Source: a virus (lineage: Duplodnaviria > Caudoviricetes). From it: a stretch of 64,000 nt of DNA. The stretch spans positions 1-64,000 of the IMG/VR virus record IMGVR_UViG_3300022723_000184; one strand, 5' to 3'. This document shows, in pieces, positions 33,809 to 53,604 of this stretch. The notes under the pieces are model-generated. The model was given only the letters and a program-made list of their open reading frames with translations. It searched no databases and was not told the origin of the DNA. Positions within the stretch are counted from its first letter, which is position 1. Each line of letters starts with the position of its first letter. Both the position numbers and the translations under genes were made by a program.

Positions 33809-36800
33809 GTGACGACCATCTCGAACAACCTGTTCGACCAGGACCCTGCCAACTCGATCCTCCCGGATCCGAGTTTTCCACAGCCCGTCCCCAAACCGGC
33901 TCCTCAGGAGGAAGAGCCGGAAATGCGGCGTTTTGGCGACCCGATTGCCACACGCCGCGCCATTTACGACAGGGTTTTCCAGGCGGCCCAGGAGATGGAG
34001 CCGGTCGTGGGCCAGACCCACACGCTGCGACTGTCCAACCTCAACTGGGCGGATCCCGAGGAATACTCCAAGCGGAAGCGGAAGGAAGCGATCCTCTCCG
34101 GCCAGACGCTTGGTCGCCGTCTTCGCGGGACCTGGGAGTTGGTCAACAACGAGACCGGTGAGGTCCAGGACCGCACGGACAAGACGGTCGCTCGCATCCC
34201 TTACGTGACGGGCAGCGGGACGTTCGTCCACCGGGGCAACGAGTACGCGATCAAGAACCAGCAGCGGCTGCGGGCCGGCGTGTTTACCCGGGTCAAGGAC
34301 AACGGGGAGGTCGAGGCCCACGCCAACATCCTCCGCGGCGGCCCGAGCCACCGGTACTTCCTGGACCCGGCCAAGGGTGTGTTCTACATGCGCCTCGGCC
34401 AGGCCAAGATCCCAATGATGCCCCTGCTCAAGGCGATGGGTGCGACCGACGCCCAGCTGCGTGAGGCTTGGGGCCCGGAGATCCACGCCGCCAACTACGG
34501 GGCCAACGACGCCAGCGCCCTGGTCAAGCTCAAGGAGAAGATCCTCAAGGACCGCTCGGCGAAGCAGGAGGAACTGGTCTCGGCCTTCAACCAGATGGAG
34601 CTGGACCCGGAGGTCACGCAGCGGACGCTGGGCCAGCCGTACGAGAACATGGGCCTCGACACGCTGCTCGACACGTCCAAGAAGCTGCTGGCGGTCAGCC
34701 GGCAGGAGGCAGACGTCGACGACCGCGACCACCTGGCCTACCAGACGTTCCTGGGTCCCGAGGATCTGCTCGCCGAGCGGATCCGCAAGGACCGGGGCGG
34801 CGTCCGCCGCAAGCTGCTGTGGAAGCTGGCCCGAGAGGGCAACCTGAGCAAGTTGCCGGCCGCCGTGCTCCAGGACCAGGTGGACAGCGCCCTGCTCGAA
34901 TCGGGCCTGGGTCAGGCCCTCGAAGAGATCAACCCGGCCGAGGTCTTCGACAAGCAGACCCAGATCAGCCGGATGGGTGAGGGCGGCATCCCGTCGCTGC
35001 AGGCGGTGCCCGACGAGGCCCGCGGCGTACAGCCCAGCCACATGGGCTTCATGGACCCGCTGCGCACCCCCGAGTGTTACGACGAGCAGACGGAGGTCAT
35101 GACGAAGCAGGGATGGAAACCGTGGCCTTCCGTTACCGAGAGTGATGAGTTCGCTTGTCTGGTGGACGGTCGTCTGGAGTTTCATCTCGCAGACAAACTG
35201 GTGTCGTACCGGTACGTCGGGCAGATGTGTGGCGCGAAGACAGCCTTGGTCGACTACCTGGTCACGCCGGACCACCGCATGTACGTTCGCCGCGGTTACG
35301 ATACACCTCACTGGCGGATCGAGACGGCGAACGAGACGCATGAGGCTCATGTTCGGATTTTGAAATGCGGCGGCCACTCGCCTTACGTCGGGATGGCGTT
35401 CGATCCCGGTCTACCTGTCTTTGAGTCGCGGTCGAACAACAGCAAGGCGATCGACCTGGCGACCACGGACCCGTGCGACTGGGCGGAGTTTGTCGGGTGG
35501 TACCTGTCGGAAGGCAACTTGGCTGTTTCCGAGTCTAGACAGTCTTATAAGGTCATGATCACTCAGAGCCCGGAAGCGAACCCGGAGAACCATACCCGGA
35601 TCCGGGACTTGTTGGATCGTCTACCGTTCGACTGGTCTTTCTGTAACCACGAGAAAGCATTTGTCGTGAGCCGCCGCCACCTTTATGAGTGGGCCAAACC
35701 GCTAGGAAAGTGTGACGACAAATTCATTCCCGCTCGTTGCTTCGATTGGCCCGAGGAAGCTCGTCGATCGTTGTTGGAGGGTCTGTTACTGGGCGACGGC
35801 CGTAAGGCAGTTAAAGGCGGCAGAGTGGGCCGGCCCACACAGTACTGTTCGACTAGCCGCAGGCTGGCTTATGACGTTCAGAGGCTGTTGTTCACCCTTG
35901 GTGTCTCGTCCCGGGTGGTATTCGAGCCGGACGAACGGGAGGATCACTATCTCGGATGCTGGGTCGTGCATATCCACGCGAGAACGCAGCGGCGAGTTGG
36001 TCGTGCTCATGCAGCTAAAGAAAGCGATTTCCACCTGGAGAGTTACGACGGTCATGTCTACTGCGCTTCTGTTCCTGGTGGGCTTTTGTACGTGCGTCGC
36101 AACGAGAGCTGCGGCATTTGGTGCGGCAACAGCTTCCGGGTCGGTGTCGACGTGCACCTGGCCCGCAATGCCCGCAAGGGGCGTGACGGCAAGCTCTACG
36201 CCCAGTTCCGTGACGCCCGGTCGGGCAAGGACGTGTGGCGCACGCCGCAGGACGTCGCCGACCTGGCCGTGGCGTTCCCCGGCTCCATGAAGTCGGAGGC
36301 CAGGCGGGTGCCGGCCATGAAGAACGGCCGGATCCGGTGGGTGCCCAAGGAGAAGGTTGACCTGGTGCTCAGCACCTTCGAGAACGCCTTCAGCCCGTTG
36401 GGCAACATGGTCCCGCTCAAGAGCATGGTGAAGGGCCAGCGGGTGGCGATGGCCAGCCGGATGAGCGTAACGGGTGACGCCTGGGTTGTAGTGCTGCGAA
36501 AATCTGGTGACGCCTATTACGGCCCGATACGAGATTACGTGTGGAGGAAAGGCGACAAGTCTCCGTCTATCGATAAGGTTACGCACCGGCTGGTGTGGAA
36601 ACCGGTGCGAGCTAAGCTAGTACACCGGAACACGAAACGTCTTATGCGGGTGACGGTTGATAGCGGTAGGAGCTTTGTTGCTACTGAGGATCACAGTTGC
36701 GTTACGCTAGGTAAATCTGGACGTCTTGAAAAGATTAAAACCGGTGATTTATCTAAAGGCCTACCCGTTCCTTATGCCGCGACGCTTGATTGCCCCGAGA

Positions 36801-39800
36801 CGTACCAGAAAACGTGGAATGTGCCGAACGGAAACAAGCACAACGCCCATCCGGGTGTCGCGTTTCCGTTAACACGGGATGTAGGCTGGTTTTTGGGGTT
36901 GTACGTTGCCGAGGGTTACGGGGTCGGCAAAGATGCTCGCGCTGTGGCGCTTGCTAACATCTCTCCCGAAGTGCAGACCAGGGTTTGCCGGTTTATGGCT
37001 GACATTGGTTTGTGCGTGAAGCCGTCTTCCGGCAGCGACGGGGTGAACGACCGGGTTGTTATCAACTGGCTGCAGTTATACAGAAAGTTGCGAGAGGATT
37101 TCGGGGACGGGGCTTATAACAAAAGGCTTCCCGCCTGGGTGCATTTTTCGCCGAAAGCGTTCCGGGAAGGTCTGTTGTCGGGATACATGGCTGGCGATGG
37201 GATCGTATCGAAACCAGTAGCCCGTTCAACAACAACCGGCGGCGGCAGCCGCAGCCTGGACCTGGTCAACGGGTTGACGCTTCTTTGTGCGTCACTCGGT
37301 ATTTCAACGTCTGTGTCCTCGCCCTGGGTTAATACCGGCCCGGGAGGATCCCGGGTGCAACAACACAAGTTCACGATACGTAAAGAGCACCAACATCTAC
37401 TCCCCGTGATCGGCCACCCGGAAAAAGACAAAAAAATGCAACGGTCGTCGTGGTCGGGCAAGCGGTCTTACGACTGGATACCGATTTTCGACGACCTTAG
37501 ACCTATGTTTAATCGGCGAACGCAGCGTCGCGACAACCGCCGCCGGCGGCTGGATAACCGTTATATGGGTCGCTTGGATCGCCGCGACGTAATCGACTTA
37601 TTTGGGGATGACGCGGAGTGGGCTACCAGGGGTTGGTCGTCGTCGTCTGTCTGGTGGGATCGGGTGAAGCGGGTGGACGAAGTCAGTTCGGACCATGAAT
37701 TCGTTTATGACCTTGACATGGAAGACAACGTGTTCCTGGCCAACGGCGTGTTTGTGCACAATACAACGCAGGCCCTGCCCGTGGCTAACCCCGAGGCGCC
37801 ACTCGTCCAGTCGGCGGTTCCCGGCAGCGGCGGGGCAATCAGCTTCGAGGACGAGTACGGATCGCACATGGGTGCGGTGCGTGCCGATCAGCCCGGTCGC
37901 GTGGTGGCGGTCACCGACGACGAGATCACCGTGCAGTACGCCGACAACAGCCGGGCGAACATCGAGCTGTACAACAACCATCCGTACAACCGTAAGAGCG
38001 TGACCGGTGACACCGAGATTCTGATCCGCAGAAGGGCGGAATCTGGGCGGTCGAGGCAAGGGCTTTACATCTGGCGAGGCCCGATTCGCGAGTATCAGTG
38101 GCGAGACGACGACTACGTCCTTTCGGTGTGTCCGAAAACGAAGCAGTCTGCGTGGAAGAAGGTCATCGCGAAAACGGCTCATCCCAACGACAAACGTCTG
38201 TTGCGGGTGAAGACAGCGTCCGGCCGTCATGTTGTGGTGACCGAAGACCACAGCCTGGTGACGATGGGTAGCGATGGAACACTCGTGCCTATCTATCCGG
38301 ACGATTGCCAGGTCGGCAAGACACGGTTGCCTGTGGCTAAGATCCCCGAAATGGTCTCGTCGAAGACGTATCCGGGCAAGTCTCGTAACGACGGTCGCGT
38401 GGTCGGCCTATACCTTGCGGAAGGGCACTGCCCGCCCAGTCAGCCAAACCTGGTGACGATTTCGGTTGAGCCGGACGATCGGGCAGAGACGGTACTGGCT
38501 TTGTTGAGAACCGTTTCGGAGGGCTACGAGCCGTTCCGAAACGGCGGTACCGTTTGTATGACGGCGCCGAAACTGGTCAAGAGGTTGGTGAAACAGTTCG
38601 GACACCGGTCACACAACAAGAAGATCCCGTCGCGATTCCTTCGGTACCCAGCCGAGTTCCGAGAAGGACTGGTCGAAGGGTACATGGGTGGCGACGGTTG
38701 CTTTTGGAAGGACGGAAACGGCGGGACTAATTTGGAGGCGACCAGTGTTTCGCGGGAGCTTCGGGACAACCTCGTCGACCTGCTGCTGTCGTTGGACGTG
38801 TTCACGACGCTGAAGACGTCGCCAAGGAAAAAGTACAAGGATGCGTGGCGGGACGGGTATCGCTTCCGCGTCTTGTCCGGGGAGCTACACAAGCTGCCCC
38901 GATGGTTCGTGTACGACGATCGAGAGGAACGGTTGAACGAATCCATCGATTCGCAGTACCGAGCTTCCGTGTACGAGATGGTTCCGGTCCCCGATAAAGA
39001 AGCCAGGACGCTCGTCTATGCCGGCTTCGACAAGACGCCGCTGCAAGGAAAAGTTGCCAAGCACAGGCTGGCCGGATCCAAAAGCGTGTTCGGCAAGTGG
39101 GGTGTCTCTGACGTCATGTGGGATGAGATCGTGGCGATCGAATCGGCGGACCACGAAGAGGAGGTCTACGACCTTTCCGTGCAAGACTCGGAGATGTTCG
39201 CTGTTTGTCACGGCCTGGTCGTACACAACACATACATCCATCAGACGCCGACGGTCCGGCCTGGCCAGTCCTTCAAGGCCGGAGACCTGCTTGCCCGGTC
39301 GAACTACACCAACGACCAGGGCGCGACGGCCCTGGGCGTCAACGCCCGCGTTGCTTACGTGCCGTGGGGCGGCAAGAACTTTGAAGACGCCATCGTGATC
39401 TCGGACTCCATGGCCAAGCGGTTGAGTTCCGAGCACATGTACCAGCACGACCTTGAGATCAGCGCCCGGACCCGCACTGGCAAGAACACCTACCTCTCGC
39501 TGTTCCCCGGCAAGTACGACAAGAAGACCCTGGAAAACATGGACGCTGACGGCGTCGTCAAACCAGGCACAGTCGTGCAACACGGGGATCCGCTAATCCT
39601 GGCTGCCGAAGAGCGGAGCCGGGCGCTGAACAAGGTTCACAAGAAGCGTCAGCCTGGCTTCCAAGACAACAGCATCACGTGGAAGCATCACGACGAAGGC
39701 GTGGTGACCGATGTGGTGAAGACCAAGAACGGCCCGGTCGTCTTGGTCAAGGGCCGGCAGGAGATGAAGGTCGGCGACAAGATGTGTTACGACCCGGAGA

Positions 39801-40831
39801 CTAGCCTACTCACGCGGCAAGGTTGGAAGCCTGTTGCGGAGGTTACGCTCGACGACGAGTTGGCGACGCTGAACCCGGAAACGGAAGAACTGGAGTACCA
39901 CAAACCAACTCACGTGCACTCGTTTGCTCACACGGGGGAGATGTACTACCTGAATACCAAGCACCTCAACATGCTGGTGACGCCGGAGCATCGCTTGTGG
40001 GTTGCTCGTCCGGGCCAGACCTACGGCGAGGTGACGGCTAAAGACTTCTACGAGTCGAAGGGCGAATGGCAGTTCAAGAAAGACTGCAAGTGGGTTGGCG
40101 AAGAACGCTTGTTGATGGAGTTCGAGCCGTACATCGCGAGGAACAGTCGAGAGCAAGTCCTGGAATCTGTACCCATGGACATTTGGCTCAGGTTCATCGG
40201 GTATTACCTGTCAGAGGGTCGAACTTGTCGTACTTCGAGCGGCGGGTATCAGGTGCAGATCAGCCAGTTCCGAACGTCTTCGGTTTGGGAGGACATTCAC
40301 GACACGCTGGTCGAGCTTGGTCTGCGTTTCTCGTACCGAGAAAACGAAAATAGGTTTGAGATCAACTCCAAGTGGTTGTACGGGGTGTTGCTGCCGTTGG
40401 GCAGCGATGCGTACTCGAAGCGAGTGCCGGAATACGTACAAGAACTGTGCTCTCGCCAGATCTCCGTCTTGTTCGATTCTTACATGGAAGGAGACGGACA
40501 TAAGGGGGCGTGCTGGGAGTTTGGAACGTCGAGCGAGCAGTTGGCTTTCGACCTTCAAGTGTTGTGTTTGAAGTTGGGCTGGTGTGTCAAGTTGAAGCCC
40601 GTCGACCGTGAAGACAACCTTCAAAAGAACCCTCACTGGCGGGGCCGAGTTAATCGTTCTCATCTGCGGCCTTGGTGGAAGAAAGGGCAGGCAAAGACCT
40701 ACGCGTCCAACGAAGAGAAGATGGTGCAGTACGACGGCGAGGTCTACTGCGTGACAGTTCCCAATCACATCGTTTATTGCAAGAGGGAGGACAAAACGTA
40801 CTGGTCGCTGAACAGCGGCCGGTACGGCTAG
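33809..40831 (+). CDS. rpoB: Multi-subunit RNA polymerase beta-like subunit (N-terminal/main part) with 4 inteins
   Basis: After removing inteins: DPLRTPE|SFRVG, QRVAMASRM|TTQALP, PYNRK|TYIHQTP, GKNFEDAIVIS, KVGDKM|SGRYG. Ends at TAG inside the GRxG(N/D)KG motif. Confidence 0.92.
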   Translation: MTTISNNLFDQDPANSILPDPSFPQPVPKPAPQEEEPEMRRFGDPIATRRAIYDRVFQAAQEMEPVVGQTHTLRLSNLNWADPEEYSKRKRKEAILSGQTLGRRLRGTWELVNNETGEVQDRTDKTVARIPYVTGSGTFVHRGNEYAIKNQQRLRAGVFTRVKDNGEVEAHANILRGGPSHRYFLDPAKGVFYMRLGQAKIPMMPLLKAMGATDAQLREAWGPEIHAANYGANDASALVKLKEKILKDRSAKQEELVSAFNQMELDPEVTQRTLGQPYENMGLDTLLDTSKKLLAVSRQEADVDDRDHLAYQTFLGPEDLLAERIRKDRGGVRRKLLWKLAREGNLSKLPAAVLQDQVDSALLESGLGQALEEINPAEVFDKQTQISRMGEGGIPSLQAVPDEARGVQPSHMGFMDPLRTPECYDEQTEVMTKQGWKPWPSVTESDEFACLVDGRLEFHLADKLVSYRYVGQMCGAKTALVDYLVTPDHRMYVRRGYDTPHWRIETANETHEAHVRILKCGGHSPYVGMAFDPGLPVFESRSNNSKAIDLATTDPCDWAEFVGWYLSEGNLAVSESRQSYKVMITQSPEANPENHTRIRDLLDRLPFDWSFCNHEKAFVVSRRHLYEWAKPLGKCDDKFIPARCFDWPEEARRSLLEGLLLGDGRKAVKGGRVGRPTQYCSTSRRLAYDVQRLLFTLGVSSRVVFEPDEREDHYLGCWVVHIHARTQRRVGRAHAAKESDFHLESYDGHVYCASVPGGLLYVRRNESCGIWCGNSFRVGVDVHLARNARKGRDGKLYAQFRDARSGKDVWRTPQDVADLAVAFPGSMKSEARRVPAMKNGRIRWVPKEKVDLVLSTFENAFSPLGNMVPLKSMVKGQRVAMASRMSVTGDAWVVVLRKSGDAYYGPIRDYVWRKGDKSPSIDKVTHRLVWKPVRAKLVHRNTKRLMRVTVDSGRSFVATEDHSCVTLGKSGRLEKIKTGDLSKGLPVPYAATLDCPETYQKTWNVPNGNKHNAHPGVAFPLTRDVGWFLGLYVAEGYGVGKDARAVALANISPEVQTRVCRFMADIGLCVKPSSGSDGVNDRVVINWLQLYRKLREDFGDGAYNKRLPAWVHFSPKAFREGLLSGYMAGDGIVSKPVARSTTTGGGSRSLDLVNGLTLLCASLGISTSVSSPWVNTGPGGSRVQQHKFTIRKEHQHLLPVIGHPEKDKKMQRSSWSGKRSYDWIPIFDDLRPMFNRRTQRRDNRRRRLDNRYMGRLDRRDVIDLFGDDAEWATRGWSSSSVWWDRVKRVDEVSSDHEFVYDLDMEDNVFLANGVFVHNTTQALPVANPEAPLVQSAVPGSGGAISFEDEYGSHMGAVRADQPGRVVAVTDDEITVQYADNSRANIELYNNHPYNRKSVTGDTEILIRRRAESGRSRQGLYIWRGPIREYQWRDDDYVLSVCPKTKQSAWKKVIAKTAHPNDKRLLRVKTASGRHVVVTEDHSLVTMGSDGTLVPIYPDDCQVGKTRLPVAKIPEMVSSKTYPGKSRNDGRVVGLYLAEGHCPPSQPNLVTISVEPDDRAETVLALLRTVSEGYEPFRNGGTVCMTAPKLVKRLVKQFGHRSHNKKIPSRFLRYPAEFREGLVEGYMGGDGCFWKDGNGGTNLEATSVSRELRDNLVDLLLSLDVFTTLKTSPRKKYKDAWRDGYRFRVLSGELHKLPRWFVYDDREERLNESIDSQYRASVYEMVPVPDKEARTLVYAGFDKTPLQGKVAKHRLAGSKSVFGKWGVSDVMWDEIVAIESADHEEEVYDLSVQDSEMFAVCHGLVVHNTYIHQTPTVRPGQSFKAGDLLARSNYTNDQGATALGVNARVAYVPWGGKNFEDAIVISDSMAKRLSSEHMYQHDLEISARTRTGKNTYLSLFPGKYDKKTLENMDADGVVKPGTVVQHGDPLILAAEERSRALNKVHKKRQPGFQDNSITWKHHDEGVVTDVVKTKNGPVVLVKGRQEMKVGDKMCYDPETSLLTRQGWKPVAEVTLDDELATLNPETEELEYHKPTHVHSFAHTGEMYYLNTKHLNMLVTPEHRLWVARPGQTYGEVTAKDFYESKGEWQFKKDCKWVGEERLLMEFEPYIARNSREQVLESVPMDIWLRFIGYYLSEGRTCRTSSGGYQVQISQFRTSSVWEDIHDTLVELGLRFSYRENENRFEINSKWLYGVLLPLGSDAYSKRVPEYVQELCSRQISVLFDSYMEGDGHKGACWEFGTSSEQLAFDLQVLCLKLGWCVKLKPVDREDNLQKNPHWRGRVNRSHLRPWWKKGQAKTYASNEEKMVQYDGEVYCVTVPNHIVYCKREDKTYWSLNSGRYG
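35075..36130 (+). mobile_element. Intein beta-1 (LAGLIDADG, 352 aa)
   Basis: CYDEQTEV...TPDH; LSEG and LLGDG endonuclease motifs; ends GN before Ser. Confidence 0.9.
36464..37762 (+). mobile_element. Intein beta-2 (LAGLIDADG, 433 aa)
   Basis: SVTGDAW...TEDH; YVAEG and MAGDG; ends VHN before Thr. Confidence 0.9.
37997..39229 (+). mobile_element. Intein beta-3 (LAGLIDADG, 411 aa)
   Basis: SVTGDTE...TEDH; YLAEG and MGGDG; ends VHN before Thr. Confidence 0.9.
39785..40813 (+). mobile_element. Intein beta-4 (LAGLIDADG, 343 aa)
   Basis: CYDPETS...TPEH; YLSEG and MEGDG; ends LN before Ser. Confidence 0.9.
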
Positions 40832-40833
40832 GT
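40826..40833 (+). other. Out-of-frame junction inside the beta conserved motif (candidate ribosomal hop site)
   Basis: GGC TAG in frame 2; GGT GAT AAA GGA in frame 1 starting at the G of TAG. Confidence 0.7.
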
Positions 40834-44877: not shown

Positions 44878-44880
44878 TGC

Positions 44881-44909: not shown

Positions 44910-44936
44910 GACAGGATCACCACGGAAGGGCCCAAC

Positions 44937-45605
44937 ATGAGCAACCACCAGGTCAACCCTCAGCTGCACACCATGGCCATGCAGGCCGTCGCCGGTTACA
45001 TCGGCAAGGTGGCTGCGGAGGAGAAGAAAGCGTTTATCCCGGGCAGCGATCCGGCGATGGGCGGTGGCGGCATGCCCCCTGGCGGGGACCCGATGGCGGC
45101 GGCCGGCGGCGGCATGCCGATGGACCCTGCGATGATGGGTGGCGGCATGCCCATGGACCCCGCGATGATGGGCGGCGCCATGCCCCCGGCTCCCCCTGCG
45201 GCACCTGCTCCGGCGCCCGCCGCGCCCGCCGCGGCCCCCGAGCAGGTCAAGCCCAAGATCGACGTCAACGTCGAGATCATGCAGATCAAGCACATGCTGG
45301 CCCGCCTCGCCGACGCGATGGGCGTCCAGCTCTCGGCCGCCGAGATGGCGACCACTCCCGAGAAGCTCACCGAGATGGCACAGGGAGGCGGCCCTGGTGG
45401 TGCGGTGGGCGGCGGTGATCCTTCGGCGATTCAGCCCCCGCAACCGATCGATCCCATGCAGGCGGCGACGCCCGCTGAGAAAGGCGCGTCGATCCACGAC
45501 CGCACCGGCTTCAACACGCCGGACACCGCGGGCCTCGGCGAGACCGCCAGCCGGGCCTCCGCGATCTTGGCCATCAGGGGGCGGTCGAACGGTAGCGCTG
45601 CGTGA
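44937..45605 (+). CDS. Pro/Met/Gly low-complexity protein with K-x-A motifs
   Basis: GKVAA and EKKAF; repeated GGGMPMDPAMM; PAAP tract. Confidence 0.75.
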   Translation: MSNHQVNPQLHTMAMQAVAGYIGKVAAEEKKAFIPGSDPAMGGGGMPPGGDPMAAAGGGMPMDPAMMGGGMPMDPAMMGGAMPPAPPAAPAPAPAAPAAAPEQVKPKIDVNVEIMQIKHMLARLADAMGVQLSAAEMATTPEKLTEMAQGGGPGGAVGGGDPSAIQPPQPIDPMQAATPAEKGASIHDRTGFNTPDTAGLGETASRASAILAIRGRSNGSAA

Positions 45606-45868
45606 TCGTCGAAATCATCAGCGACGGCAAACCGCTACGCATCCCGGCGAGTCAGTTGGTCGTCTTTGACGACAACGGCACGCCGATTTGCGTTGCGGGC
45701 GAGTACGGGCCGGACGGTGCGTACAAGGTCTCGCACGCGGCCGACGAAGACTTCAACCAAAGCCTGCGTGCCTTCGGGGTTGGAAGGCACCAGGTCGTCA
45801 CAGATTTCCTAGAGCCACCTCCCGTTCCCGGCGGGGCGAGGCCGCTTACAGGACCATCGAAAGGATGA
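45602..45868 (+). CDS. Hypothetical protein
   Basis: GTGA overlap; coherent 88-aa ORF. Confidence 0.7.
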   Translation: MIVEIISDGKPLRIPASQLVVFDDNGTPICVAGEYGPDGAYKVSHAADEDFNQSLRAFGVGRHQVVTDFLEPPPVPGGARPLTGPSKG

Positions 45869-46794
45869 GCGTCATGTCCGATCACCCCAAGAACACGAAC
45901 CACATCTACGGCAGCAACAACAAATCGGTCGTCGACAACCGGCATGGTGACCGAAAGGGCAGACCGGGTCAGCCATTGAAAGCGAACCCGAGTTACCTAA
46001 CGAACAAGGACAACCCGTCGGCCGACAAGTACTACCGCAACCCGACGGAGGGCGGCCAGGAGGTGGCCCCGAACTCCAACGTTTCGACCAGCTCTTACCT
46101 CCACCCGCAGAGCACGGCTCCCCTCTCGCTCACGAACGAAGCGGACATGGGCGGGGTCTTCGACCTGATCCTCGGCCGCCTGCGTTCGGGCCAGGCCAAG
46201 GTGATCGTCCAGGTGACCGACGCCAACCTGGAGCGGCGTCTCGACGCCCGCCTCGACATGGCCCAGGCCCGCCAGCAAATTGACAACCGACAGCGTGCCG
46301 CCGTCCAGATCGGGCGCCCCGCTGCCTTGTCCGCGGCTACCGTGGCCGCCCCGACGCCCACCCCGACCACCGAGCGTCAGGCCGACGACGACCTGGCGTC
46401 CGACATCGACCCGGAGGCCTACGTGAACGGCGAGCTGCCCGAAGACGCGATCGACACCAACGCCTCGGCCGTGGCCGTCATCGAGGGCCCGGAGGCAGGC
46501 ACCGACGAGGGCGAGGACCTGGGCGAGGAGCCCGGGCCCGAGGGCGAGCCCGGCGAACCGCAGGCCTCGGACGGGGACGGCGGGGACGATGACGACGATG
46601 ACGACGACGGCGATGACGGGGACGACGATGACGACGAGGAGGAGGATGACGACGATGGCGAAGAAGAAGCTCCGGAAGGCGAGGAAGACGAAGAGGACGA
46701 GTTCGGCGACGTGCTAGACGACGTCGAAGAAGAACTCGACGACGACCTGGCGGACCTCGACGAAGAGCCCGAGTCTCATCTTCCAAGCCGATGA
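45865..46794 (+). CDS. Protein with very acidic low-complexity C-terminus
   Basis: D/E tract from about 46560 to 46770; ends SHLPSR inside repeat copy 3. Confidence 0.75.
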   Translation: MSVMSDHPKNTNHIYGSNNKSVVDNRHGDRKGRPGQPLKANPSYLTNKDNPSADKYYRNPTEGGQEVAPNSNVSTSSYLHPQSTAPLSLTNEADMGGVFDLILGRLRSGQAKVIVQVTDANLERRLDARLDMAQARQQIDNRQRAAVQIGRPAALSAATVAAPTPTPTTERQADDDLASDIDPEAYVNGELPEDAIDTNASAVAVIEGPEAGTDEGEDLGEEPGPEGEPGEPQASDGDGGDDDDDDDDGDDGDDDDDEEEDDDDGEEEAPEGEEDEEDEFGDVLDDVEEELDDDLADLDEEPESHLPSR

Positions 46795-46840: not shown

Positions 46841-46857
46841 TCGGGGCACGGAGGCCC

Positions 46858-49800
46858 ATGAAGGCGACGGTCGGTCAACTTCTGGTGAACGACGCACTCC
46901 CGGAGGACATGCGGGACTACCAAATGGTCCTCGACAAAAAGGGTGTGCGGAATCTCATGGCCGACCTGGCCCGTAAGCACCCGGAGGATTACCGGGAGGT
47001 CAGCCACAAGCTCTCACAGATCGGTTGGCGTTCGGCCCAGGAATCCGGCGGCTACAGCTTCGGCTTGGAGCACATGCTCAAAAGCAAGACCGGCCGAGAG
47101 ACCCGCCAACGCATCCAGAAAAAGATCAACGAGATCCTCGCCGACGACCGGCTCACCGACGAGCAGCGTGAGCAGCTGATCCTCAAGCACATCGGCAAGG
47201 AACGCGAGGCCATGCAGTCGGGGATCTTCGACGAGGCCCGCGCCGCGAAGAACCCGCTGGCCATGCAGGTGTTGGGCTCGGGCCGCGGCAACCCGATGAA
47301 CCTGTCGAGCCTGTTGGGCTCGGACCTGCTGTACACCGACCAGCGTGACCGGCTGATTCCGATCCCCGTGCTCCGCAGTTACAGCGAGGGCCTGAGCCCC
47401 GCCGAGTACTGGGCCGGGACCTACGGCGCCCGCAAGGGCGTGATGTGTTTGGCTAAAGGAACTCAGGTGCTGATGGCCGATTACACGGACAAGCCGATCG
47501 AGAAGGTGAAACCTGGTGACTGGGTGATGGGATCTGATCGTCAAGGGCGGATGACGCCTGTGAGGGTTATCCGTCGTTACTACAACGGTGTGCAGCCTTG
47601 CTACCGCTACCGATTTCGCAAAAATAGTTGCCGTTTGCCGTCCTCGCATCGAACACTCGTGGCGACCGAAAAGCATAAGGTCCTTGCCACCGTAAAAGCC
47701 GGACGACCCGGTTCAACCTATGCACACCGGTCAATCTACGTCCCGACACCATTACCGCTTGAAGCGGCGCGTCTGCTTAAAAATCCAGTAAAGAATGAAT
47801 ACGTGGCGACGCCGGCGGCCGGGGAGGCGGGCGAGCAGTCCCGAGTGCGAGAACCGTCGGCCTTGTTGTATGGGTTGATGCTCGGCGACGGGTGTATGGC
47901 AGAATCGACCCGTGGGCGGTATTTGTTGTCGTGCAATGACCCGCTCCTTTTGGACGACCTGCGTGAGTACATCTCATTGTTCGACGTGTTTTTGGACAAA
48001 GCAGGCGGTGATAATTACAACTATACGCTGGCGGGCGATGGGGGGGCTGCGGTTGCGGTCGATTTGAAGACGCGTCTCGGCGAGAAATTGGCCCACGATA
48101 AGGAGCTTCCAGAGGGTTGTTTCGCATGGGACGATGTTTCGGTTGGTCAGTTGCTCGGAGGATTGTTTTCCACCGACGGCTCGATTACTGGCCGAAACGG
48201 TAACGCAACAATTAAGTTGACACTTTCTTCCCGGCGTATGGTGGAACAAGTGCAACGACTGTTGGAACTCCGGTTGGGTATATGGTCCGGCGGGCTGATC
48301 TTCACAGCTAAAGAAAAGAAGAAGAACGCAACGCACGACCAATGGGGTTTTGCGGTGTCACACGCTGCGTCGGTTGCCAGGTTTTTCGCGCGGGTCCCCT
48401 TGTACGGCAAGAAGAGGGTTCAGGCGAAGCGTATCGCGGCTACCATGAAACCGGACCACTCAAACGGGTCACCGGGGTTTAAGATCTACGATCGAGAACC
48501 GGCTGGCGAAATTGCTACATATGATTTGGAGGTTGATCACCCAGACCACCTGTTTGTGCTTTCTAGCGGCCTGGTCGTGTCCAACAGCACGAAGTTCGCC
48601 ACCCAGGAGGCGGGCTTCCTCTCTAAGCAGCTCAACCAGATGGGCCACCGCCTGGTGGTCACAGATGAGGACGGGGACGGCGAGCCCGATTCGCTCCGCG
48701 GCCTGCCGGTGGATGTCGACGACCCGGACTCCGCGGGAAGCCTGCTGGCCCACGACGCCGGCGGCTACAAGCGGAATACGGTGATCACGCCCAAGATCCT
48801 GCACAACCTTCGCCGCCAAGGTCTCAAGCGGATACTGGTCCGCAGCCCCACGGTCGGTGGTAGCCCTGAGGGTGGTATCTACAGCCGTGACGCCGGCGTC
48901 CGCGAGAAGGGCGGGCTCCCGGGTCGCGGCGAGAACATCGGCCTGGCCGCTGCCCAGGCGTTGTGTTTGTCTGGAGGGACGAGAGTCCAGATGGCCAACG
49001 GAGAGGTCAAAGCGGTGGAGGACGTTAAGCCCGGAGATGTAGTTCTGGGATGCAGTGTCGACGGGGTGTTGCGGCCTGTTCCTGTGCTTGACGCTTGTTT
49101 CAGCGGCATTAAATCGTGTGTGAAGGCCCTGTTCAGGCGGGGCACGGGTAAGGCCGCCAAAGACAATCTGCTAGAGCTGGTCGCGACTCCAGAGCACAAA
49201 ATACTCTCCGAGATTGTTGTTCGTTCGGGTAGGGGTTCGGTAAAACGTGTTCCTTACTTCGATCCGGTTGCCGTTCGCCCGCTCGGAACCAAAATCCCAC
49301 ATGAAAAGCGATCAGGGGGCGATCGGTTCTGCGCTAAACTGGCGTCGTCCTTTGACGATACCGGGCTTGGTGTTCAACCTTTAGCTTTTCTTTTGGGTCT
49401 GGTAATCGGTGATGGTTGCTATAGCGGATCAGCGAACTGCGTAGGGTTCAGCTGTTATGATCCGGTGCTCGCCGCTGACGTCGGTGCGTATCTCAAGCCG
49501 TTGAACTTCGAGATCAAAAACAACACGGATAACGAGTACCGCGTTGTCGATACAACGCACCGCCAAGTGAAGCGACGCGAAGATGGTAGCTGGTATCGCA
49601 GCCGTCTTATTGAGCTGCTTCGTGTCGAGGGAATGTTCGGGCAGACGAGCAGTATTAAGACTTTGCCGAAGTCCGTGCACTCGTGGGATAACGCGTCTGT
49701 GGCTGCGCTGATCGCCGGTCTGCTCGTAACGGACGGGTACGTGATATCGACGGGCGGTTTGGGGTTCGGATCGAACTCTAAGTGCTTGCTGGATGGCGTT

Positions 49801-52800
49801 CGGCAGCTTCTAGGGTTGCGGTGGGGCGTCTGGGGTTCGTCGGTTATATCTTCCACGAAGAAGCGTGCTGATGGTGATGAGTACGCCCCTAACTGGCGGT
49901 TTACGGTTAATCGCAGAGACGATGTTAATCTTCTTCGTTCTATTCTTCCTGTCGCTGGCGTGAAACGTGGTCGGCTAGACTCGCTGTTATCGAAGTGGAA
50001 CTCGAAACGGCGTTCGGCAAGAGGCGCGCCTAGAGTCAAGGGTCGGTGTACTCGTATTTCATTGGAACGGGTCGGCGAGTTGCCGACATACGACCTGTAC
50101 ATCGCACACCCTGATCACCTTTTCGTGTTGGCCAACGGACTGGTTGTTTCCAACTCCGAGCCCCTGAGTCAGGCTCAGCTTTGCCTTGCAGCAGGGACTC
50201 TAGTGCGGATGGCCGACTGGACGGTGAAACGGATCGAGCAGGTCCGGGCTGACGAACAAATCATGGGAGCCGACAAATCCGGGCGGCTGTTTCCGGTGCG
50301 CGTTGTCCGGGTCTACGACAACGGAGAGCGGGAGTGTGTTCGGACGGTATTCCGGGAAGCCAAAACGAAGCAACACGTCGATCTGGTCAGCACCGGAGAC
50401 CACAAACTCTTGTCCAAGACAAGGCATTGGGCGATACCGTCCGAGCGAGTGGAACACGGCGTGTTTCCGGTCGCCCGGAAATGTGTTGGCTACTCGGCCA
50501 AGATGCCGTTCGCGGTCGTAAACGATCACGGCTGTGCAGAACCGTTTGCCGGCCTGTGCGGTCTGCTGCTGGGTGATGGAGGGTATACTGTCAGCGTTCA
50601 CGGGGTTCACTGGTCTTGTTTCGAGCCGGACCTGGTGGAAGAGATGCAGCCTTACCTGGCAGGACTGGGTTTGAAGGCTACGAAGCTCCAAGGGCACGAA
50701 GGGCACGAAGGCTATTACCGAATCAGCCAGGTCGAAGACGCGATTCGGCAAGACCCGGAGACCGGACGAGTGCTGCCCGGAGACCGTAATCCGGCACTGA
50801 TCTGGTTGAAGCAGCACCGGATGTACGGCAAGTACGCACACGAGAAAGAGATTCCCGAGGAGATTTGGAGTTGGGACCAAAACTCGGTTGCACGATTGCT
50901 GGGCTGCCTGTTTGCGACAGACGGTAGCGTTTATCCGCCGACGCAGCGACCCGATGAACTCTATATCAACTTCAGCTCAACTTCTTTGGAGCTTGCGAAG
51001 CAGGTCAAGGAACTAATTCAGGTCCGCTTTGCGATTCATAGCTCGTCGATCGGAAGCCACAAGGGAAAACGCAAGCGGAAGCTTTATTCGTTCACGATCA
51101 CCCGCAAAGAACAGGTCAGACGGTTCGCGTCTCGGATCGCGGTTCCGGCGCGTAAAGGACAGATGCTGGCCGACTATCTGCCAAAACTCCAGGAAGACGA
51201 GTCCACCGAGTATTTCCATCGCCAGCGGCAGGAACCCGTGGGCACGGTTGCGACATACGATCTCGAAGTCGACCATCCGGACCATCTTTTCGTGCTGGCC
51301 AACGGTCTGATTGTTTCTAACTCGGCCAAGCACTCGGGCGGCGTGGCCGGCAGCGAGAAGGCGGTCTCCGGGTTCGACTACATCAACCAGCTGATCCAGG
51401 TGCCCAAGAAGTTCAAGGGTGGTGCGGCCCATGCCCAGGTCGACGGCATCGTGAGCCGGATCGAAGAGGCTCCGGCCGGTGGCAAGTACGTCGTGATCAA
51501 TAACGAGAAGCACTACGTCGGTCCGGACTTCTCGTTGAAGGTTAAGCGAGGCGACGAGATTGAGGCGGGCGACGTCCTGAGCGAGGGCATCCCGAACCCG
51601 TCGGAGGTCGTGCGCCACAAGGGCGTTGGCGAAGGTCGGCGGTACTTCACCCAGGCCTTCCGCCAGGCGATGCATGAAGCTGGGATACACGCCAGCCGCC
51701 GCAACGTGGAACTGTTGGGTCGGGGCCTGATCGACCATGTGCGGATGACGGATGAGTACGATCAGTACGTCCCGGACGATGTGGTACCCTACAGTGCACT
51801 GGAGCACCGGTGGCAACCCCGGGAAGGGAGCCGCCGGGTCCCGTACAAGCAGGCGGTTGGCAAGTACCTGGAGCGTCCGGTCCTCCACTACACGATCGGC
51901 ACGAAGATCCGGAAATCGATGCTCAAGGACTTCGAGGACTTCGGGGTCGAGGAGCTGGAGACCCATGACGAGCCGCCGCCGTTCGAGCCCGAGATGATCC
52001 GGGGCATGTACTCGGTCCAACACGATCCCGACTGGATGACCAGGATGTACGGCTCAGGCCAGAAGAAGAGCTTGCTGAGTGCCGTGCACCGTGGCGGGAC
52101 CAGTGACGAGCTGGGCACCTCGTTCGTCCCGGGCCTGGCCCGTGGCGTCGACTTCGGCCGGCAGGGCCTGGTCACGCCGCCCGCCCCACCCCAGAAGATG
52201 GGCAGCGACATGCAGAAGGAAGCGGAGGGCATGTGGGGAACCGGGGCCATCCCGGGCTCACCCAACTTCAACCTGCAGCAGCAGGCCCGCCAGTCGTACA
52301 ACGTCGGCAACAGCATGCTCAGCAGTATGCGTGGCGGCGGTGGCGTGGGTCCGGCAACGGCCGGCGACGCCAACCGGTTCCGACAGTACCTCTCGTCTTT
52401 CGCCGCTGCCCCCGGCCCCACCGGGGCACCTGCCGGTCAGGCTGCTGCGTCCGTGGCCCGCCCGGCGGCTGCTACGGCCGGCAGTGCCGCGACCGGCAAC
52501 GGCCTGACCACCGCCGACTGGCACGCGTGGAGTGCTGGACCGATGGGGGCGGGCGCCGCGACCAAGGCCGGGACCCGTCCGCTGGCCGCTGCTGCCCTGC
52601 GGTACGCACCGGCCGTGGCCAAGGCCCCGGGCATCCGCAACCTGGTGGGCGCTATGGCCCGGCCCTCGGCCGCCGCCCAGGCGTTGAGCGGGGTGAAGCC
52701 GCAGATGCCGGGCACCGTCTCGAAGTGGCTGCGGCCCGGCTACCACCAGTACGCGACCAAGGTCCTGGGTCAGTCCCACAACCTGGCTCAGGGTGCCGGC

Positions 52801-53604
52801 AAGTTCGGGCGGTTCGCGGGCAAGGCTGGGCGACTCGCTGGTCCGTTGGGCCTGGCGGTCGCCCCGCTGGAGTTCGGGATCCGTGGCGGCAGCGAGCTTT
52901 ACGACATGGCCACGGGTCAGGACACCTTCGGGAACATGGTCGACCAGCGGCTGCGGGACGCTGGCAACTGGCAGGGGCCGACGGGTTATGCGGGCGCCGT
53001 GCTCAACACACCGTTCAGTCCGTCGAGCGTGGCGGCCTTGGGCAAAGCCAAATACGACCTGGCGATGGCCCCCATCCAATCGTTTGCCCAACGACGCCAA
53101 TCGCTGGCCGCGGGCAACCGGCTCAACGAGCAGCTGGCCGAGAACCGCGAGGCGGCGGGTGGCGTCGACGAGCTGCTGCAGCACGCTCCGAAGGACATCG
53201 CCAGCCGGTACGCCCGGAAATACGTGGACGACACGCCCTGGTACGGTCTGGGCGGGTTCAATCCGTTCGTGAACGATCAGGGCCGCATGACGTGGGTCGA
53301 CAAGGGGACCGGCGAGGAAGCTGGTTCCGGGGCCATGCAGGCGATCGAGCAGGTCAAACAGCAGAACCAAGATCGTGAAGCGGCACAGGAGGCCGCGAGG
53401 TACGCGAGGCAAAAACCGCAGCAGGCCGCGGTGGTCCAGGCGAAACCGGCTGCTCCGGCACCCGCTCAAGAGGCCCGTGCGGCGTCGCTCCTCGGCAACC
53501 CGATCTACCGACAAGTGCTCAGCCAGGTCAGCGCCCAGAGCCCGGAAATGGGAGCGATGCTCCTGCTGTCAGGTGCCGATCCGTCTCATCTTATGGGCCG
53601 ATGA
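46858..53604 (+). CDS. rpoC: RNAP beta' C-terminal part with 3 inteins and a ~460-aa non-RNAP C-terminal extension
   Basis: ATVGQLLVN, GARKGVM|STKFATQEAGFLSKQL (bridge helix), IGLAAAQAL|SEPLSQAQL|SAKHSGG (trigger loop). A Gly/Ala-rich tail follows QKEAE. Confidence 0.92.
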   Translation: MKATVGQLLVNDALPEDMRDYQMVLDKKGVRNLMADLARKHPEDYREVSHKLSQIGWRSAQESGGYSFGLEHMLKSKTGRETRQRIQKKINEILADDRLTDEQREQLILKHIGKEREAMQSGIFDEARAAKNPLAMQVLGSGRGNPMNLSSLLGSDLLYTDQRDRLIPIPVLRSYSEGLSPAEYWAGTYGARKGVMCLAKGTQVLMADYTDKPIEKVKPGDWVMGSDRQGRMTPVRVIRRYYNGVQPCYRYRFRKNSCRLPSSHRTLVATEKHKVLATVKAGRPGSTYAHRSIYVPTPLPLEAARLLKNPVKNEYVATPAAGEAGEQSRVREPSALLYGLMLGDGCMAESTRGRYLLSCNDPLLLDDLREYISLFDVFLDKAGGDNYNYTLAGDGGAAVAVDLKTRLGEKLAHDKELPEGCFAWDDVSVGQLLGGLFSTDGSITGRNGNATIKLTLSSRRMVEQVQRLLELRLGIWSGGLIFTAKEKKKNATHDQWGFAVSHAASVARFFARVPLYGKKRVQAKRIAATMKPDHSNGSPGFKIYDREPAGEIATYDLEVDHPDHLFVLSSGLVVSNSTKFATQEAGFLSKQLNQMGHRLVVTDEDGDGEPDSLRGLPVDVDDPDSAGSLLAHDAGGYKRNTVITPKILHNLRRQGLKRILVRSPTVGGSPEGGIYSRDAGVREKGGLPGRGENIGLAAAQALCLSGGTRVQMANGEVKAVEDVKPGDVVLGCSVDGVLRPVPVLDACFSGIKSCVKALFRRGTGKAAKDNLLELVATPEHKILSEIVVRSGRGSVKRVPYFDPVAVRPLGTKIPHEKRSGGDRFCAKLASSFDDTGLGVQPLAFLLGLVIGDGCYSGSANCVGFSCYDPVLAADVGAYLKPLNFEIKNNTDNEYRVVDTTHRQVKRREDGSWYRSRLIELLRVEGMFGQTSSIKTLPKSVHSWDNASVAALIAGLLVTDGYVISTGGLGFGSNSKCLLDGVRQLLGLRWGVWGSSVISSTKKRADGDEYAPNWRFTVNRRDDVNLLRSILPVAGVKRGRLDSLLSKWNSKRRSARGAPRVKGRCTRISLERVGELPTYDLYIAHPDHLFVLANGLVVSNSEPLSQAQLCLAAGTLVRMADWTVKRIEQVRADEQIMGADKSGRLFPVRVVRVYDNGERECVRTVFREAKTKQHVDLVSTGDHKLLSKTRHWAIPSERVEHGVFPVARKCVGYSAKMPFAVVNDHGCAEPFAGLCGLLLGDGGYTVSVHGVHWSCFEPDLVEEMQPYLAGLGLKATKLQGHEGHEGYYRISQVEDAIRQDPETGRVLPGDRNPALIWLKQHRMYGKYAHEKEIPEEIWSWDQNSVARLLGCLFATDGSVYPPTQRPDELYINFSSTSLELAKQVKELIQVRFAIHSSSIGSHKGKRKRKLYSFTITRKEQVRRFASRIAVPARKGQMLADYLPKLQEDESTEYFHRQRQEPVGTVATYDLEVDHPDHLFVLANGLIVSNSAKHSGGVAGSEKAVSGFDYINQLIQVPKKFKGGAAHAQVDGIVSRIEEAPAGGKYVVINNEKHYVGPDFSLKVKRGDEIEAGDVLSEGIPNPSEVVRHKGVGEGRRYFTQAFRQAMHEAGIHASRRNVELLGRGLIDHVRMTDEYDQYVPDDVVPYSALEHRWQPREGSRRVPYKQAVGKYLERPVLHYTIGTKIRKSMLKDFEDFGVEELETHDEPPPFEPEMIRGMYSVQHDPDWMTRMYGSGQKKSLLSAVHRGGTSDELGTSFVPGLARGVDFGRQGLVTPPAPPQKMGSDMQKEAEGMWGTGAIPGSPNFNLQQQARQSYNVGNSMLSSMRGGGGVGPATAGDANRFRQYLSSFAAAPGPTGAPAGQAAASVARPAAATAGSAATGNGLTTADWHAWSAGPMGAGAATKAGTRPLAAAALRYAPAVAKAPGIRNLVGAMARPSAAAQALSGVKPQMPGTVSKWLRPGYHQYATKVLGQSHNLAQGAGKFGRFAGKAGRLAGPLGLAVAPLEFGIRGGSELYDMATGQDTFGNMVDQRLRDAGNWQGPTGYAGAVLNTPFSPSSVAALGKAKYDLAMAPIQSFAQRRQSLAAGNRLNEQLAENREAAGGVDELLQHAPKDIASRYARKYVDDTPWYGLGGFNPFVNDQGRMTWVDKGTGEEAGSGAMQAIEQVKQQNQDREAAQEAARYARQKPQQAAVVQAKPAAPAPAQEARAASLLGNPIYRQVLSQVSAQSPEMGAMLLLSGADPSHLMGR
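47446..48585 (+). mobile_element. Intein beta'-1 (LAGLIDADG, 380 aa)
   Basis: CLAKGTQV...TEKH; MLGDG and FSTDG; ends DHPDHLFVLSSGLVVSN before Ser. Confidence 0.9.
48964..50154 (+). mobile_element. Intein beta'-2 (LAGLIDADG, 397 aa)
   Basis: CLSGGTRV...TPEH; VIGDG and LVTDG; ends HPDHLFVLANGLVVSN before Ser. Confidence 0.9.
50182..51321 (+). mobile_element. Intein beta'-3 (LAGLIDADG, 380 aa)
   Basis: CLAAGTLV...TGDH; LLGDG and FATDG; ends DHPDHLFVLANGLIVSN before Ser. Confidence 0.9.

Follow-up and report, generated by a model that had tools for sequence, protein, structure and literature searches.

The multisubunit RNA polymerase of this phage is likely to work as a two-chain enzyme from which nine inteins must be spliced, and whose beta reading frame, closed by a stop codon just behind the fourth intein (I4), would be carried past that stop by a programmed short translational bypass linked to the intein. 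The case is made from the anatomy of the stop site, its conservation in relatives, the covariation of an adjoining RNA hairpin and the match between the bypassed product and uninterrupted alleles. With nine inteins and one interruption, the enzyme needs nine protein splices and, probably, one ribosome hop, a step to be added to the nine splicing events of the original prediction made from this DNA.

Organisation of the polymerase locus

The window, a stretch of 64,000 nucleotides, belongs to the IMG/VR record IMGVR_UViG_3300022723_000184, a phage of about 202 kb that encodes its own bacterial-type multisubunit RNA polymerase. Three large plus-strand ORFs encode the enzyme: 33809-40831 (2340 aa), 40672/40831-44877 and 46858-53604 (2248 aa). 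The Pfam models Rpb2_6 and Rpb1_2 match within them, and the double-psi barrel motifs of beta (GDK...KG) and beta' (NADFDGD), the bridge helix and the trigger loop are all present. The original prediction had described the same three ORFs, with three genes ahead of beta'C, and its ORF coordinates and NADFDGD motif were borne out. The locus is made up as follows.

33809..40828, plus strand: beta-beta'N reading unit, part 1; beta N-terminal exteins and inteins I1-I4, ending ...GDKM[I4]SGRYG
40834..44877, plus strand: beta-beta'N reading unit, part 2; beta C-terminal exteins, beta'N, inteins I5 and I6
44877..46794, plus strand: three intervening ORFs between beta'N and beta'C; g1 44877-45605, g2 45602-45868, g3 45865-46794
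46858..53604, plus strand: beta'C gene; bridge helix, trigger loop, inteins I7-I9, Ala/Gly-rich tail

Once spliced, the beta N-terminal exteins of part 1 amount to 801 aa; the NADFDGD motif of beta'N lies at 44593-44613, and the Ala/Gly-rich tail of beta'C (472 aa) starts at 52186. No relatives of this tail were found, and it has no PHROG or Pfam match. Of the intervening ORFs, g1 and g2 are conserved in the same place in 17-21 relatives, and no relative of g3 was seen in the IMG/VR loci compared. None of the three matched a Pfam or PHROG entry, and the same is true of the ORFs upstream of the polymerase and of ORF 53747. Neither Sigma70_r2 nor RNA_pol_L (Pfam) matched anywhere in the 202-kb record. 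ARAGORN found no tRNA genes, so the phage brings neither a tRNA-Gly nor a suppressor tRNA of its own.

In about 60 of 79 IMG/VR relatives, beta and beta'N form one continuous ORF with a separate beta'C downstream, and the cultured Salmonella phage Arash is arranged in the same way, gp206 (1525 aa) being the continuous beta-beta'N and gp216 the beta'C; more distant relatives carry a single beta-beta' ORF of about 2,050 aa. The claim that a fusion-plus-split layout is exceptional does not hold, since on the sequences compared it is the norm in a large clade. Nor is the break between the first two ORFs a subunit boundary between beta and beta-C, as had been proposed. It is a putative recoding gap of 5 nt within the catalytic loop GDK...KG, so that the enzyme, like those of its relatives, most likely has two chains, one in which beta is fused to beta'N and the other being beta'C.

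The window polymerase has sequence similarity and gene order in common with the Arash-like clade, and the fusion itself only if the 5-nt gap is bypassed. In tblastn, Arash and Vibrio phage D181 matched at about 30%, bacterial beta' at 32-35% with 70% of the query covered, and phiKZ-like enzymes far more weakly; megablast of 44000-47500 against phage records gave no match. The phage belongs to the Arash-like clade, and this clade probably corresponds to mReC. Like the window, Arash (PMC10585845) and the mReC phages (PMC7481178) have a bacterial-type beta/beta' enzyme, with beta-beta'N in one ORF and beta'C a few kb downstream; neither paper describes the fusion/split layout or inteins. Arash differs from the window in having no inteins and no interruption, and the two are only about 30% identical. 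Proteomics placed both gp206 and gp216 among the most abundant virion proteins (PMC10585845), which points to a virion-packaged polymerase in Arash. D181, of the same clade, also has beta-C fused to beta'N and a separate beta'C. In D181, unlike in the window, a free-standing homing endonuclease gene really divides beta, which restarts at an ATG; the split is close to the motif of the I2 site, and D181 has neither inteins nor a hop.

Nine inteins in catalytic motifs

The inteins are listed below, with a slash at each junction.

35075..36130, plus strand: I1, 352 aa, Cys1...Asn/Ser, RTPE/S, family A
36464..37762, plus strand: I2, 433 aa, Ser1...His-Asn/Thr, ASRM/T, family B
37997..39229, plus strand: I3, 411 aa, Ser1...His-Asn/Thr, NRK/T, family B
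39785..40813, plus strand: I4, 343 aa, Cys1...Asn/Ser, GDKM/S, family A
40939..41937, plus strand: I5, 333 aa, Cys1...Asn/Thr, NPLGVISR/T, family A
42178..43185, plus strand: I6, 336 aa, Cys1...Asn/Ser, KLHHTAE/S, family A
47446..48585, plus strand: I7, 380 aa, Cys1...Asn/Ser, bridge helix GARKGVM/S, family C
48964..50154, plus strand: I8, 397 aa, trigger loop AAAQAL/S, family C
50182..51321, plus strand: I9, 380 aa, trigger loop SEPLSQAQL/S, family C

Together they make up 3365 of 5936 encoded residues (56.7%); the boundary sums match the nine inteins and 3365 of about 5935 residues (about 57%) first reported, and all nine sites do lie at catalytic motifs, among the most conserved of the enzyme. 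The three families, A (I1, I4, I5, I6), B (I2, I3) and C (I7, I8, I9), are unrelated to one another. Residue 1 is Cys in seven inteins and Ser in two (I2 and I3), and the block B TxxH motif reads, from I1 to I9, TPDH, TEDH, TEDH, TPEH, TPNH, TPNH, TEKH, TPEH and TGDH. All nine end in Asn, followed by Ser in six and Thr in three, I2 and I3 alone having a penultimate His. Pfam models for LAGLIDADG and/or intein splicing match eight of the nine; LAGLIDADG_3 scores above its cut-off in seven, I2 falling just below but with Hom_end above its own cut-off. I4 is homologous to I1, I5 and I6, carries conserved GYYxxEG and GDGH motifs, and sits in the beta double-psi barrel with a catalytic lysine on either side.

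When the inteins are taken out, the exteins rejoin gap-free at all nine junctions by comparison with the intein-free relative L062, and the six beta-beta'N junctions are also gap-free against Arash gp206. Because the interrupted motifs are essential and the exteins strongly conserved, all nine inteins would be expected to undergo protein splicing. In our model, LAGLIDADG inteins of three families homed into catalytic motifs, and each would have to be spliced out.

Several of the sites are occupied elsewhere: I1 in seven relatives, I5 in L004, L005 and L063, and I3 probably in L052, L058 and L059, with an insertion at the I9 position in L067. Distant inteins at the I4 site also occur in other phages and in RPB2-like metagenome genes (GDKF/.../S[SN]RHGQKGT), which from their extein motif look to be of giant-virus or eukaryote type. 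Inteins are also known in archaeal rPol A'/A''. RNA polymerase inteins have been described in RPB2/RPA2/RPC2 and viral RPO (PMC1635734). All of these are LAGLIDADG inteins at conserved sites around the active centre, as in the window, which differs from them in that a single phage enzyme holds nine, drawn from three families, and that two of these (I8 and I9) are separated by only nine extein residues in the trigger loop.

The intein load is, as judged from the sequence, exceptional, as originally proposed. Across the same polymerase genes the 79 IMG/VR relatives carry 0-4 insertions, so that relatives share the layout of the window and not its count of nine. Published maxima per protein are four, in Trichodesmium ribonucleotide reductase and archaeal MCM, and five, in Anaeramoeba Prp8 (PMC10710043). 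These proteins resemble the window polymerase in holding several non-allelic inteins in one essential protein; the window has four in its first ORF, three in beta'C, and six in beta-beta'N if the hop joins the two parts.

The interruption behind I4 and its conservation

After I4 the DNA reads GGC TAG GT GAT, which we read as a candidate recoding site with an adjoining hairpin.

40797..40826, plus strand: predicted RNA hairpin of 13 bp; folding dG -23 kcal/mol, z -4.8; covariation
40826..40833, plus strand: putative recoding site; take-off GGC 40826-28, stop TAG 40829-31, gap TAGGT 40829-33, landing GGT 40831-33

With GAT at 40834 as the resume codon, a 5-nt skip restores GDKM-SGRYG-DKGVV, gap-free against L062 and Arash. 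The exact 5-nt form is known from one assembly, and intein identity to the closest relative is no more than 72%, two points that count against a bypass here.

We compared 42 cluster representatives carrying an intein of the I4 lineage, 38 of them covering the whole intein, together with 16 junction DNAs. The motif ...N[SC]G[RQ]YG is the exact end of 37 of the 42 representatives, and 35 of the 38 full-length ones are interrupted, the three uninterrupted alleles reading NSGR[YFV]GDK[GS]V... through the same loop. In the intein tree the gap is ancestral. A broken gene, leaving an inactive polymerase, or an assembly error adding five artefactual nucleotides might be suspected from the fact that the window form comes from one metagenome assembly and that its TAGGT is one base away from the TGAGGT form. 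We regard this as very unlikely, since the interruption recurs in dozens of independent assemblies (NCBI, ENA, JGI, Logan), the codons downstream of the gap show protein-level conservation with synonymous change, and the hairpin covaries. Apparent frame changes in L026 and L071 were also inspected and showed no similar cassette.

In all 16 junction DNAs a stop directly follows the take-off GGY (TAG in 1, TGA in 9, TAA in 6) and reading resumes at GAY AAR GGN, across a gap of 5-11 nt whose frames 0, +1 and +2 are represented five, six and five times. Reassignment of a stop codon was rejected, as the site is found with each of the three stops and 11 of the 16 gaps change the frame. Recoding signals typically include a stop where the shift takes place and RNA structure close to it, and frameshifting or stop readthrough could in principle restore the frame with two to four residues added to the loop. 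It is highly improbable that this happens here: with the gap frames evenly spread, no single shift or readthrough fits all alleles, the inserted residues would vary in number and kind within the most conserved beta motif, and in the window neither a -1 nor a +1 shift would allow the P-site tRNA to re-pair.

An ordinary split gene would have beta-C-beta'N begin at a start of its own, TTG 40777 or TTG/GTG 40672/40675, and D181 provides a beta that is genuinely split, with an ATG start after its free-standing homing endonuclease gene. An upstream in-frame TTG, GTG or ATG is indeed found in the window and four other alleles. In the remaining 11 of the 16, no canonical start codon lies in frame ahead of the conserved D-K-G codons, and the TTG at 40777, 57 nt upstream, has no Shine-Dalgarno sequence before it. 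Moreover, such starts would add 19-52 residues of out-of-frame intein sequence and would leave both the landing Gly codon and the covarying hairpin unexplained, and we therefore give this reading very little weight. The in-frame TTG at 40777 is nonetheless a point against a bypass.

The last triplet of the gap encodes Gly in 14 of the 16 junctions (GGT or GGC in 13, GGA in 1), matching the take-off codon. L088 (AGC) and L129 (GAT), which form one sublineage, have no Gly landing triplet, and they too count against a bypass.

A covarying hairpin at the splice junction

The hairpin straddles the point at which I4 would be excised. Codons at the very end of the intein (T Y W S L) make up its 5' arm, its loop includes the Asn codon, and its 3' arm takes in the C-extein codons S G R Y and the first base of the take-off Gly codon. 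It is found in all 16 gapped alleles, at -18 to -24 kcal/mol, with 98.6% of cells paired and compensatory changes at 5 of the 13 pairs, a level that none of 500 shuffles reached. It is absent from uninterrupted L144, the one such allele examined as DNA, and from five distant inteins at the same site. Invariant U.G pairs suggest that it acts as sense-strand RNA rather than as a DNA structure; a DNA cruciform or endonuclease site was rejected as its meaning, as on the opposite strand each such pair would become an A.C mismatch. The take-off codon marks the 3' end of the hairpin, whose position 5' of that codon speaks against a bypass, and there is no stem with the take-off codon on its 5' side.

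As the hairpin abuts the gap, it might guide removal of the gap from the RNA by some micro-splicing or editing process. This is the least probable of the alternatives, since we know of no mechanism that removes 5-11 nt of variable sequence, and neither a stop as the first triplet of the gap nor a Gly codon at its end would be needed.

A model for bypass at the beta stop

While TAG occupies the A site, the peptidyl-tRNA-Gly would unpair from the P-site Gly codon GGC, the mRNA would slide by 5 nt and the tRNA would re-pair with GGT. Decoding would then restart at GAT and give the uninterrupted loop GDKM-SGRYG-DKGVV. The forward slide is probably driven by the hairpin, which lies immediately 5' of the take-off codon and would re-form behind the ribosome. 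From this arrangement we infer a single chain, how efficiently the ribosome hops and what the hairpin does.

The matched codon would be needed equally for re-pairing of a deacylated tRNA after termination, with two chains as the outcome, and this weighs against a bypass. Under such a scheme, termination is followed by reinitiation independent of a start codon: the deacylated tRNA-Gly and the ribosome slide to the Gly codon, and a second chain begins from Asp. Three chains are predicted (beta-N, beta-C-beta'N and beta'C), and the catalytic loop would be broken after Gly, just ahead of Asp. The retention of a stop in 16 of 16 junctions, with all three stop codons in use, fits this well, as do the 37 called proteins that end at GRYG. 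We nevertheless consider it unlikely, as one chain runs through the loop in every intein-free relative and in the uninterrupted alleles, the cut would fall between two catalytic lysines, and the restart would have to be primed by an elongator tRNA, for which we know of no established route in bacteria. Programmed bypass remains the reading we prefer.

Half of the hairpin is intein codons and half C-extein, so precise loss of the intein would leave a stop in an essential polymerase gene that could no longer be bypassed. More tentatively, intein, homing endonuclease and bypass gap may form a composite selfish element that cannot be deleted, and with it a new, widespread natural class of hairpin-driven short-range bypass; this is possible rather than likely. 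If the bypass is real, it would constitute a second, unrelated bypass family in bacterial viruses and a compact system for the study of ribosome hopping, offering gaps of 5-11 nt, a covarying hairpin, dozens of natural variants and natural revertants. Because the signal spans the splice junction, it would link recoding to intein biology and suggests lock-in of a mobile element to an essential gene. As gene callers label the polymerases of this clade truncated or split, the finding would also correct annotation for the whole phage clade. With nine inteins in one enzyme, or six in one chain if the hop joins, above the published maxima of four and five, the phage is a natural experiment on the number of splicing steps that an essential machine can bear.

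Comparison with known bypass systems

Apart from yeast mitochondria, the natural examples of programmed bypass come, to our knowledge, essentially from T4 gene 60 and related genes. Gene 60 (10.1101/2022.08.31.505936) shares with the window a Gly take-off codon followed by a stop and a matched Gly landing codon, and both cassettes are linked to a homing-endonuclease mobile element. The gap is 20-50 nt in gene 60 and its homologues, compared with 5-11 nt in the window lineage, and the host gene is a topoisomerase rather than RNA polymerase beta, with no sequence relationship between the two. No homology to the MobA/topoisomerase cassette was found, the linked element in the window being an intein. 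The take-off stem-loop of gene 60 contains the take-off codon; the window hairpin instead resembles the 5' stem-loop of gene 60, which is thought to push the ribosome forward (10.1101/2022.08.31.505936), but differs in straddling an intein/extein junction. The window cassette is predicted to bypass in the manner of gene 60 while standing outside the gene 60 family.

The non-programmed 'stop-hops' of E. coli, in which a slow-to-decode codon is hopped over (reviewed in 10.1101/2022.08.31.505936), are similar in another respect: a peptidyl-tRNA moves a short distance past a stop from one codon to a matching one, whatever the frame, as proposed here. Those events are synthetic or accidental, and their low efficiency counts against a bypass in the window. 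The window site differs from them in that it belongs to an essential gene, has been kept throughout a diverged lineage and comes with a covarying RNA structure of its own.

Results

RNAP genes and inteins

The source record (201,946 bp, GC 62.5%, estimated completeness ~90%) encodes its RNAP in three large ORFs, identified by ORF reading and listed below with the nine inteins (I1-I9), whose boundaries were placed by flanking conserved motifs.

RNAP features and further inteins, in window coordinates
33809-40831, + strand: first large RNAP ORF
40672-44877, + strand: second large RNAP ORF
46858-53604, + strand: third large RNAP ORF
35075-36130: I1
36464-37762: I2
37997-39229: I3
39785-40813: I4
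40939-41937: I5
42178-43185: I6
47446-48585: I7
48964-50154: I8
50182-51321: I9
40797-40826: hairpin, dG -23.2 kcal/mol, z -4.8
~60493-61689: further intein 1 of ORF 60274-64167, aa 74-472, Cys...His-Asn/Ser
~61966-63180: further intein 2 of ORF 60274-64167, aa 565-969, Cys...Ser-Asn/Cys

Pfam RNA_pol_Rpb2_6 matches the first and second ORFs and RNA_pol_Rpb1_2 the second; Rpb2_3, Rpb1_1 and Rpb1_5 score more weakly, and there are numerous Hint, intein and LAGLIDADG hits. The NADFDGD motif lies at 44593-44613. The third ORF encodes beta'C, the separate part of beta' with the bridge helix and trigger loop, and ends in an Ala/Gly/Pro-rich tail of 472 residues (52186-53604) that has no relatives among the loci compared and no match in Pfam or PHROG. 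The beta'C of the intein-free related locus L062 is also long-tailed (937-aa ORF), and the two tails are unrelated. No tRNA genes were found in the whole genome by ARAGORN, nor did Pfam Sigma70_r2 or the alpha-like RNA_pol_L match anywhere in it, unlike Salmonella phage Arash, which has an annotated sigma factor. Upstream, a 457-aa ORF (28390-29763) has PHROGs matches to a domain of virion-associated or endolysin type (aa 30-200), after which comes a part resembling phosphoheptose isomerase or polynucleotide kinase.

A recount from the boundaries reproduced the predicted nine inteins and 3365 residues (3365/5936). Each begins with Cys or Ser, contains a TxxH block and ends in Asn followed by Ser or Thr. 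The Pfam LAGLIDADG_3 cut-off is exceeded by seven of the nine; I2 falls slightly under it, with Hom_end and Intein_splicing matches above theirs, and I4 scores weakly yet is homologous to I1, I5 and I6 (E 1e-26 to 1e-34) and keeps both LAGLIDADG motifs. The inteins form three families (I1, I4, I5 and I6; I2 and I3; I7, I8 and I9) with within-family identities of only 27-36%, which indicates old, separate acquisitions rather than recent duplications. Intein DNA has a GC content of 55.9%, against 65.6% for the exteins. Once spliced in silico, the exteins align to L062 without gaps at every junction, as do the six beta-beta'N junctions (beta fused to the N-terminal part of beta') to Arash gp206. 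Between I8 and I9 the extein island is nine trigger-loop residues, SEPLSQAQL (50155-50181), an extreme case of neighbouring inteins.

Layout and intein load among relatives

The closest cultured relatives found by tblastn against phage records are Arash and Vibrio phage D181 (~30% identity). Arash has a continuous beta-beta'N (gp206, 1525 aa) with beta'C (gp216) 4.8 kb downstream, and in ~60 of 79 related IMG/VR loci beta-beta'N is a single ORF of about 1,460-1,510 aa without interruption, followed 0.9-6.7 kb downstream by beta'C. Fusion plus beta' split is thus a clade trait, and this layout, thought exceptional in the original prediction, is ordinary among these phages. The split itself looks derived, as the most distant loci (L068-L082, ~35% identity) encode all of beta and beta' in one ORF of ~2,020-2,160 aa (for example L076:7097-13276). 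Of the three ORFs between beta'N and beta'C (44877-46794), the first two are conserved there in 17-21 relatives. Five loci (L006, L007, L009, L011 and L012) have 0.75-2.3 kb insertions at the beta/beta'N joint (query ~939-941), some with a frame change, so the fusion has been interrupted there repeatedly. In D181 the order is beta-N, a free-standing homing endonuclease gene, beta-C fused to beta'N, then beta'C; beta restarts at an ATG (MAGKALPQ...; L002, 5205-10719) a few residues from the I2 motif, and the same conserved stretch is targeted by different mobile elements. This clade probably corresponds to the mReC lineage described by Weinheimer and Aylward (PMC7481178). Arash virions contain both RNAP chains, which rank with their most abundant proteins (PMC10585845); neither publication mentions the fusion/split layout or inteins.

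The intein load, by contrast with the layout, is extreme, as had been predicted: nine, against at most four insertions in any of the 79 loci (L067; three in L005, L063, L011 and L012, mostly none) and published maxima of four inteins per protein and, in Anaeramoeba Prp8, five (PMC10710043). The first window ORF holds four, and the beta-beta'N chain, if joined, six. Individual sites recur: RTPE/S is occupied in seven relative loci, GDKM/S in three plus one partial locus, GVISR/T in three, and NRK/T and the second trigger-loop site in a few. The ORF at 60274-64167, which ends beyond the window (1297 aa, conserved in relatives), contains two more inteins, bringing the genome total to at least 11.

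A candidate recoding site within beta

The junction between the first two ORFs, originally read as a beta/beta-C gene boundary, is instead a candidate recoding site in the catalytic loop. Its DNA, AGC GGC CGG TAC GGC TAG GT GAT AAA GGA GTT, reads S G R Y G stop in the first frame and D K G V V five bases on. Arash and L062 have a continuous GDK-x-x-G-x-x-G-[ND]-K-G-V-V, and skipping exactly TAGGT (40829-40833) would therefore restore the loop with both catalytic lysines of the beta barrel. GGC stands immediately before the gap and GGT closes it; both codons can be read by one tRNA-Gly through wobble. This exact 5-nt form is known from a single assembly. The arrangement itself recurs: L005 and L063, the closest IMG/VR loci in which an intein occupies the site, read GGC TGA GGT GAT.

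A search of 5.8 billion proteins yielded 42 cluster representatives with an intein of the I4 lineage (51-72% identity). The called proteins of 37 end exactly in ...N[SC]G[RQ]YG, and the remaining five continue uninterrupted as NSGR[YFV]GDK[GS]V..., the predicted hop product. We recovered 16 distinct junction DNAs, on which the following counts rest. A stop directly follows the Gly codon in all 16 (TAG 1, TGA 9, TAA 6), the gaps measure 5, 6, 7 (five), 8 (three), 9 (four), 10 and 11 nt, and the resume codons are always GAY AAR GGN, varying synonymously. Readthrough or a fixed frameshift fails because the gaps fall almost equally in all frames (5/6/5), and independent initiation fails for most alleles, as in 11/16 the stretch of resume frame that runs from the preceding stop to the Asp codon contains no ATG, GTG or TTG. 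The final gap triplet is a Gly codon in 14/16 junctions, across 11 different gap sequences. The exceptional sublineage (L088/L083/L128 and L129) has a TAA stop and keeps the hairpin, with gaps TAACTAAGC and TAACGAT and with AGC (L088) or GAT (L129) where the landing Gly codon would be; it may land on a near-cognate codon, follow another resume rule or be decaying. Uninterrupted alleles nest among gapped ones in the intein tree, which makes the gap ancestral and lost at least twice.

Each gapped allele folds into a perfect 12-13-bp hairpin (-18 to -24 kcal/mol) that extends one base into the take-off codon. The intein's final codons (T Y W S L) form its 5' arm, the Asn codon lies in the loop, and the codons for S G R Y of the C-extein supply the 3' arm. 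Over the 16 alleles pairing holds in 98.6% of cells and 5/13 pairs show compensatory double changes, a covariation matched by 0/500 shuffles; slid controls pair at 20-53%. Some compensatory changes keep pairing at the cost of an altered protein: intein Trp UGG to Leu CUG accompanies Arg CGG to AGG, and Arg to Gln (CAG) converts a U.G pair to U-A. Two U.G pairs vary little or not at all, which is consistent with a structure formed by sense-strand RNA, not by DNA. The hairpin is absent from L144, the sole uninterrupted allele examined as DNA (NSGRYG in other codons, -4.5 kcal/mol), and from five distant, continuous inteins of the same site.

Discussion

The hairpin-stop-gap cassette is the most interesting feature of this RNAP region, and judged from sequence conservation it most probably causes ribosomes to hop in the catalytic loop. 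We favour a peptidyl-tRNA-Gly hop from one matched codon to the other because it accounts for 14/16 alleles. Re-pairing of a deacylated tRNA after termination, giving two chains, has in its favour that it would require identical matched codons. In the peptidyl-tRNA hop, a ribosome holding GGY in its P site would enclose the 3' arm, the 5' arm having just emerged, and would be stalled in decoding by the A-site stop. Re-forming of the hairpin would then pull mRNA from the exit side and so advance the ribosome to the next GGY, where the tRNA-Gly it has kept could pair.

A forward-pushing role like the one envisaged here has been put forward for T4 gene 60, for its 5' stem-loop (10.1101/2022.08.31.505936). 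Since the intein supplies half of the hairpin, its precise deletion would strip the stop of the structure that aids its bypass, a hint that the cassette may lock the intein in. Another intein site lies 11 residues downstream in L099:4001-5032, after GDKISGRHGNKGI and before C, so a competing homing endonuclease could target DNA at the gap. The gap may then also serve as protection from cleavage, a role already proposed in T4 gene 60.
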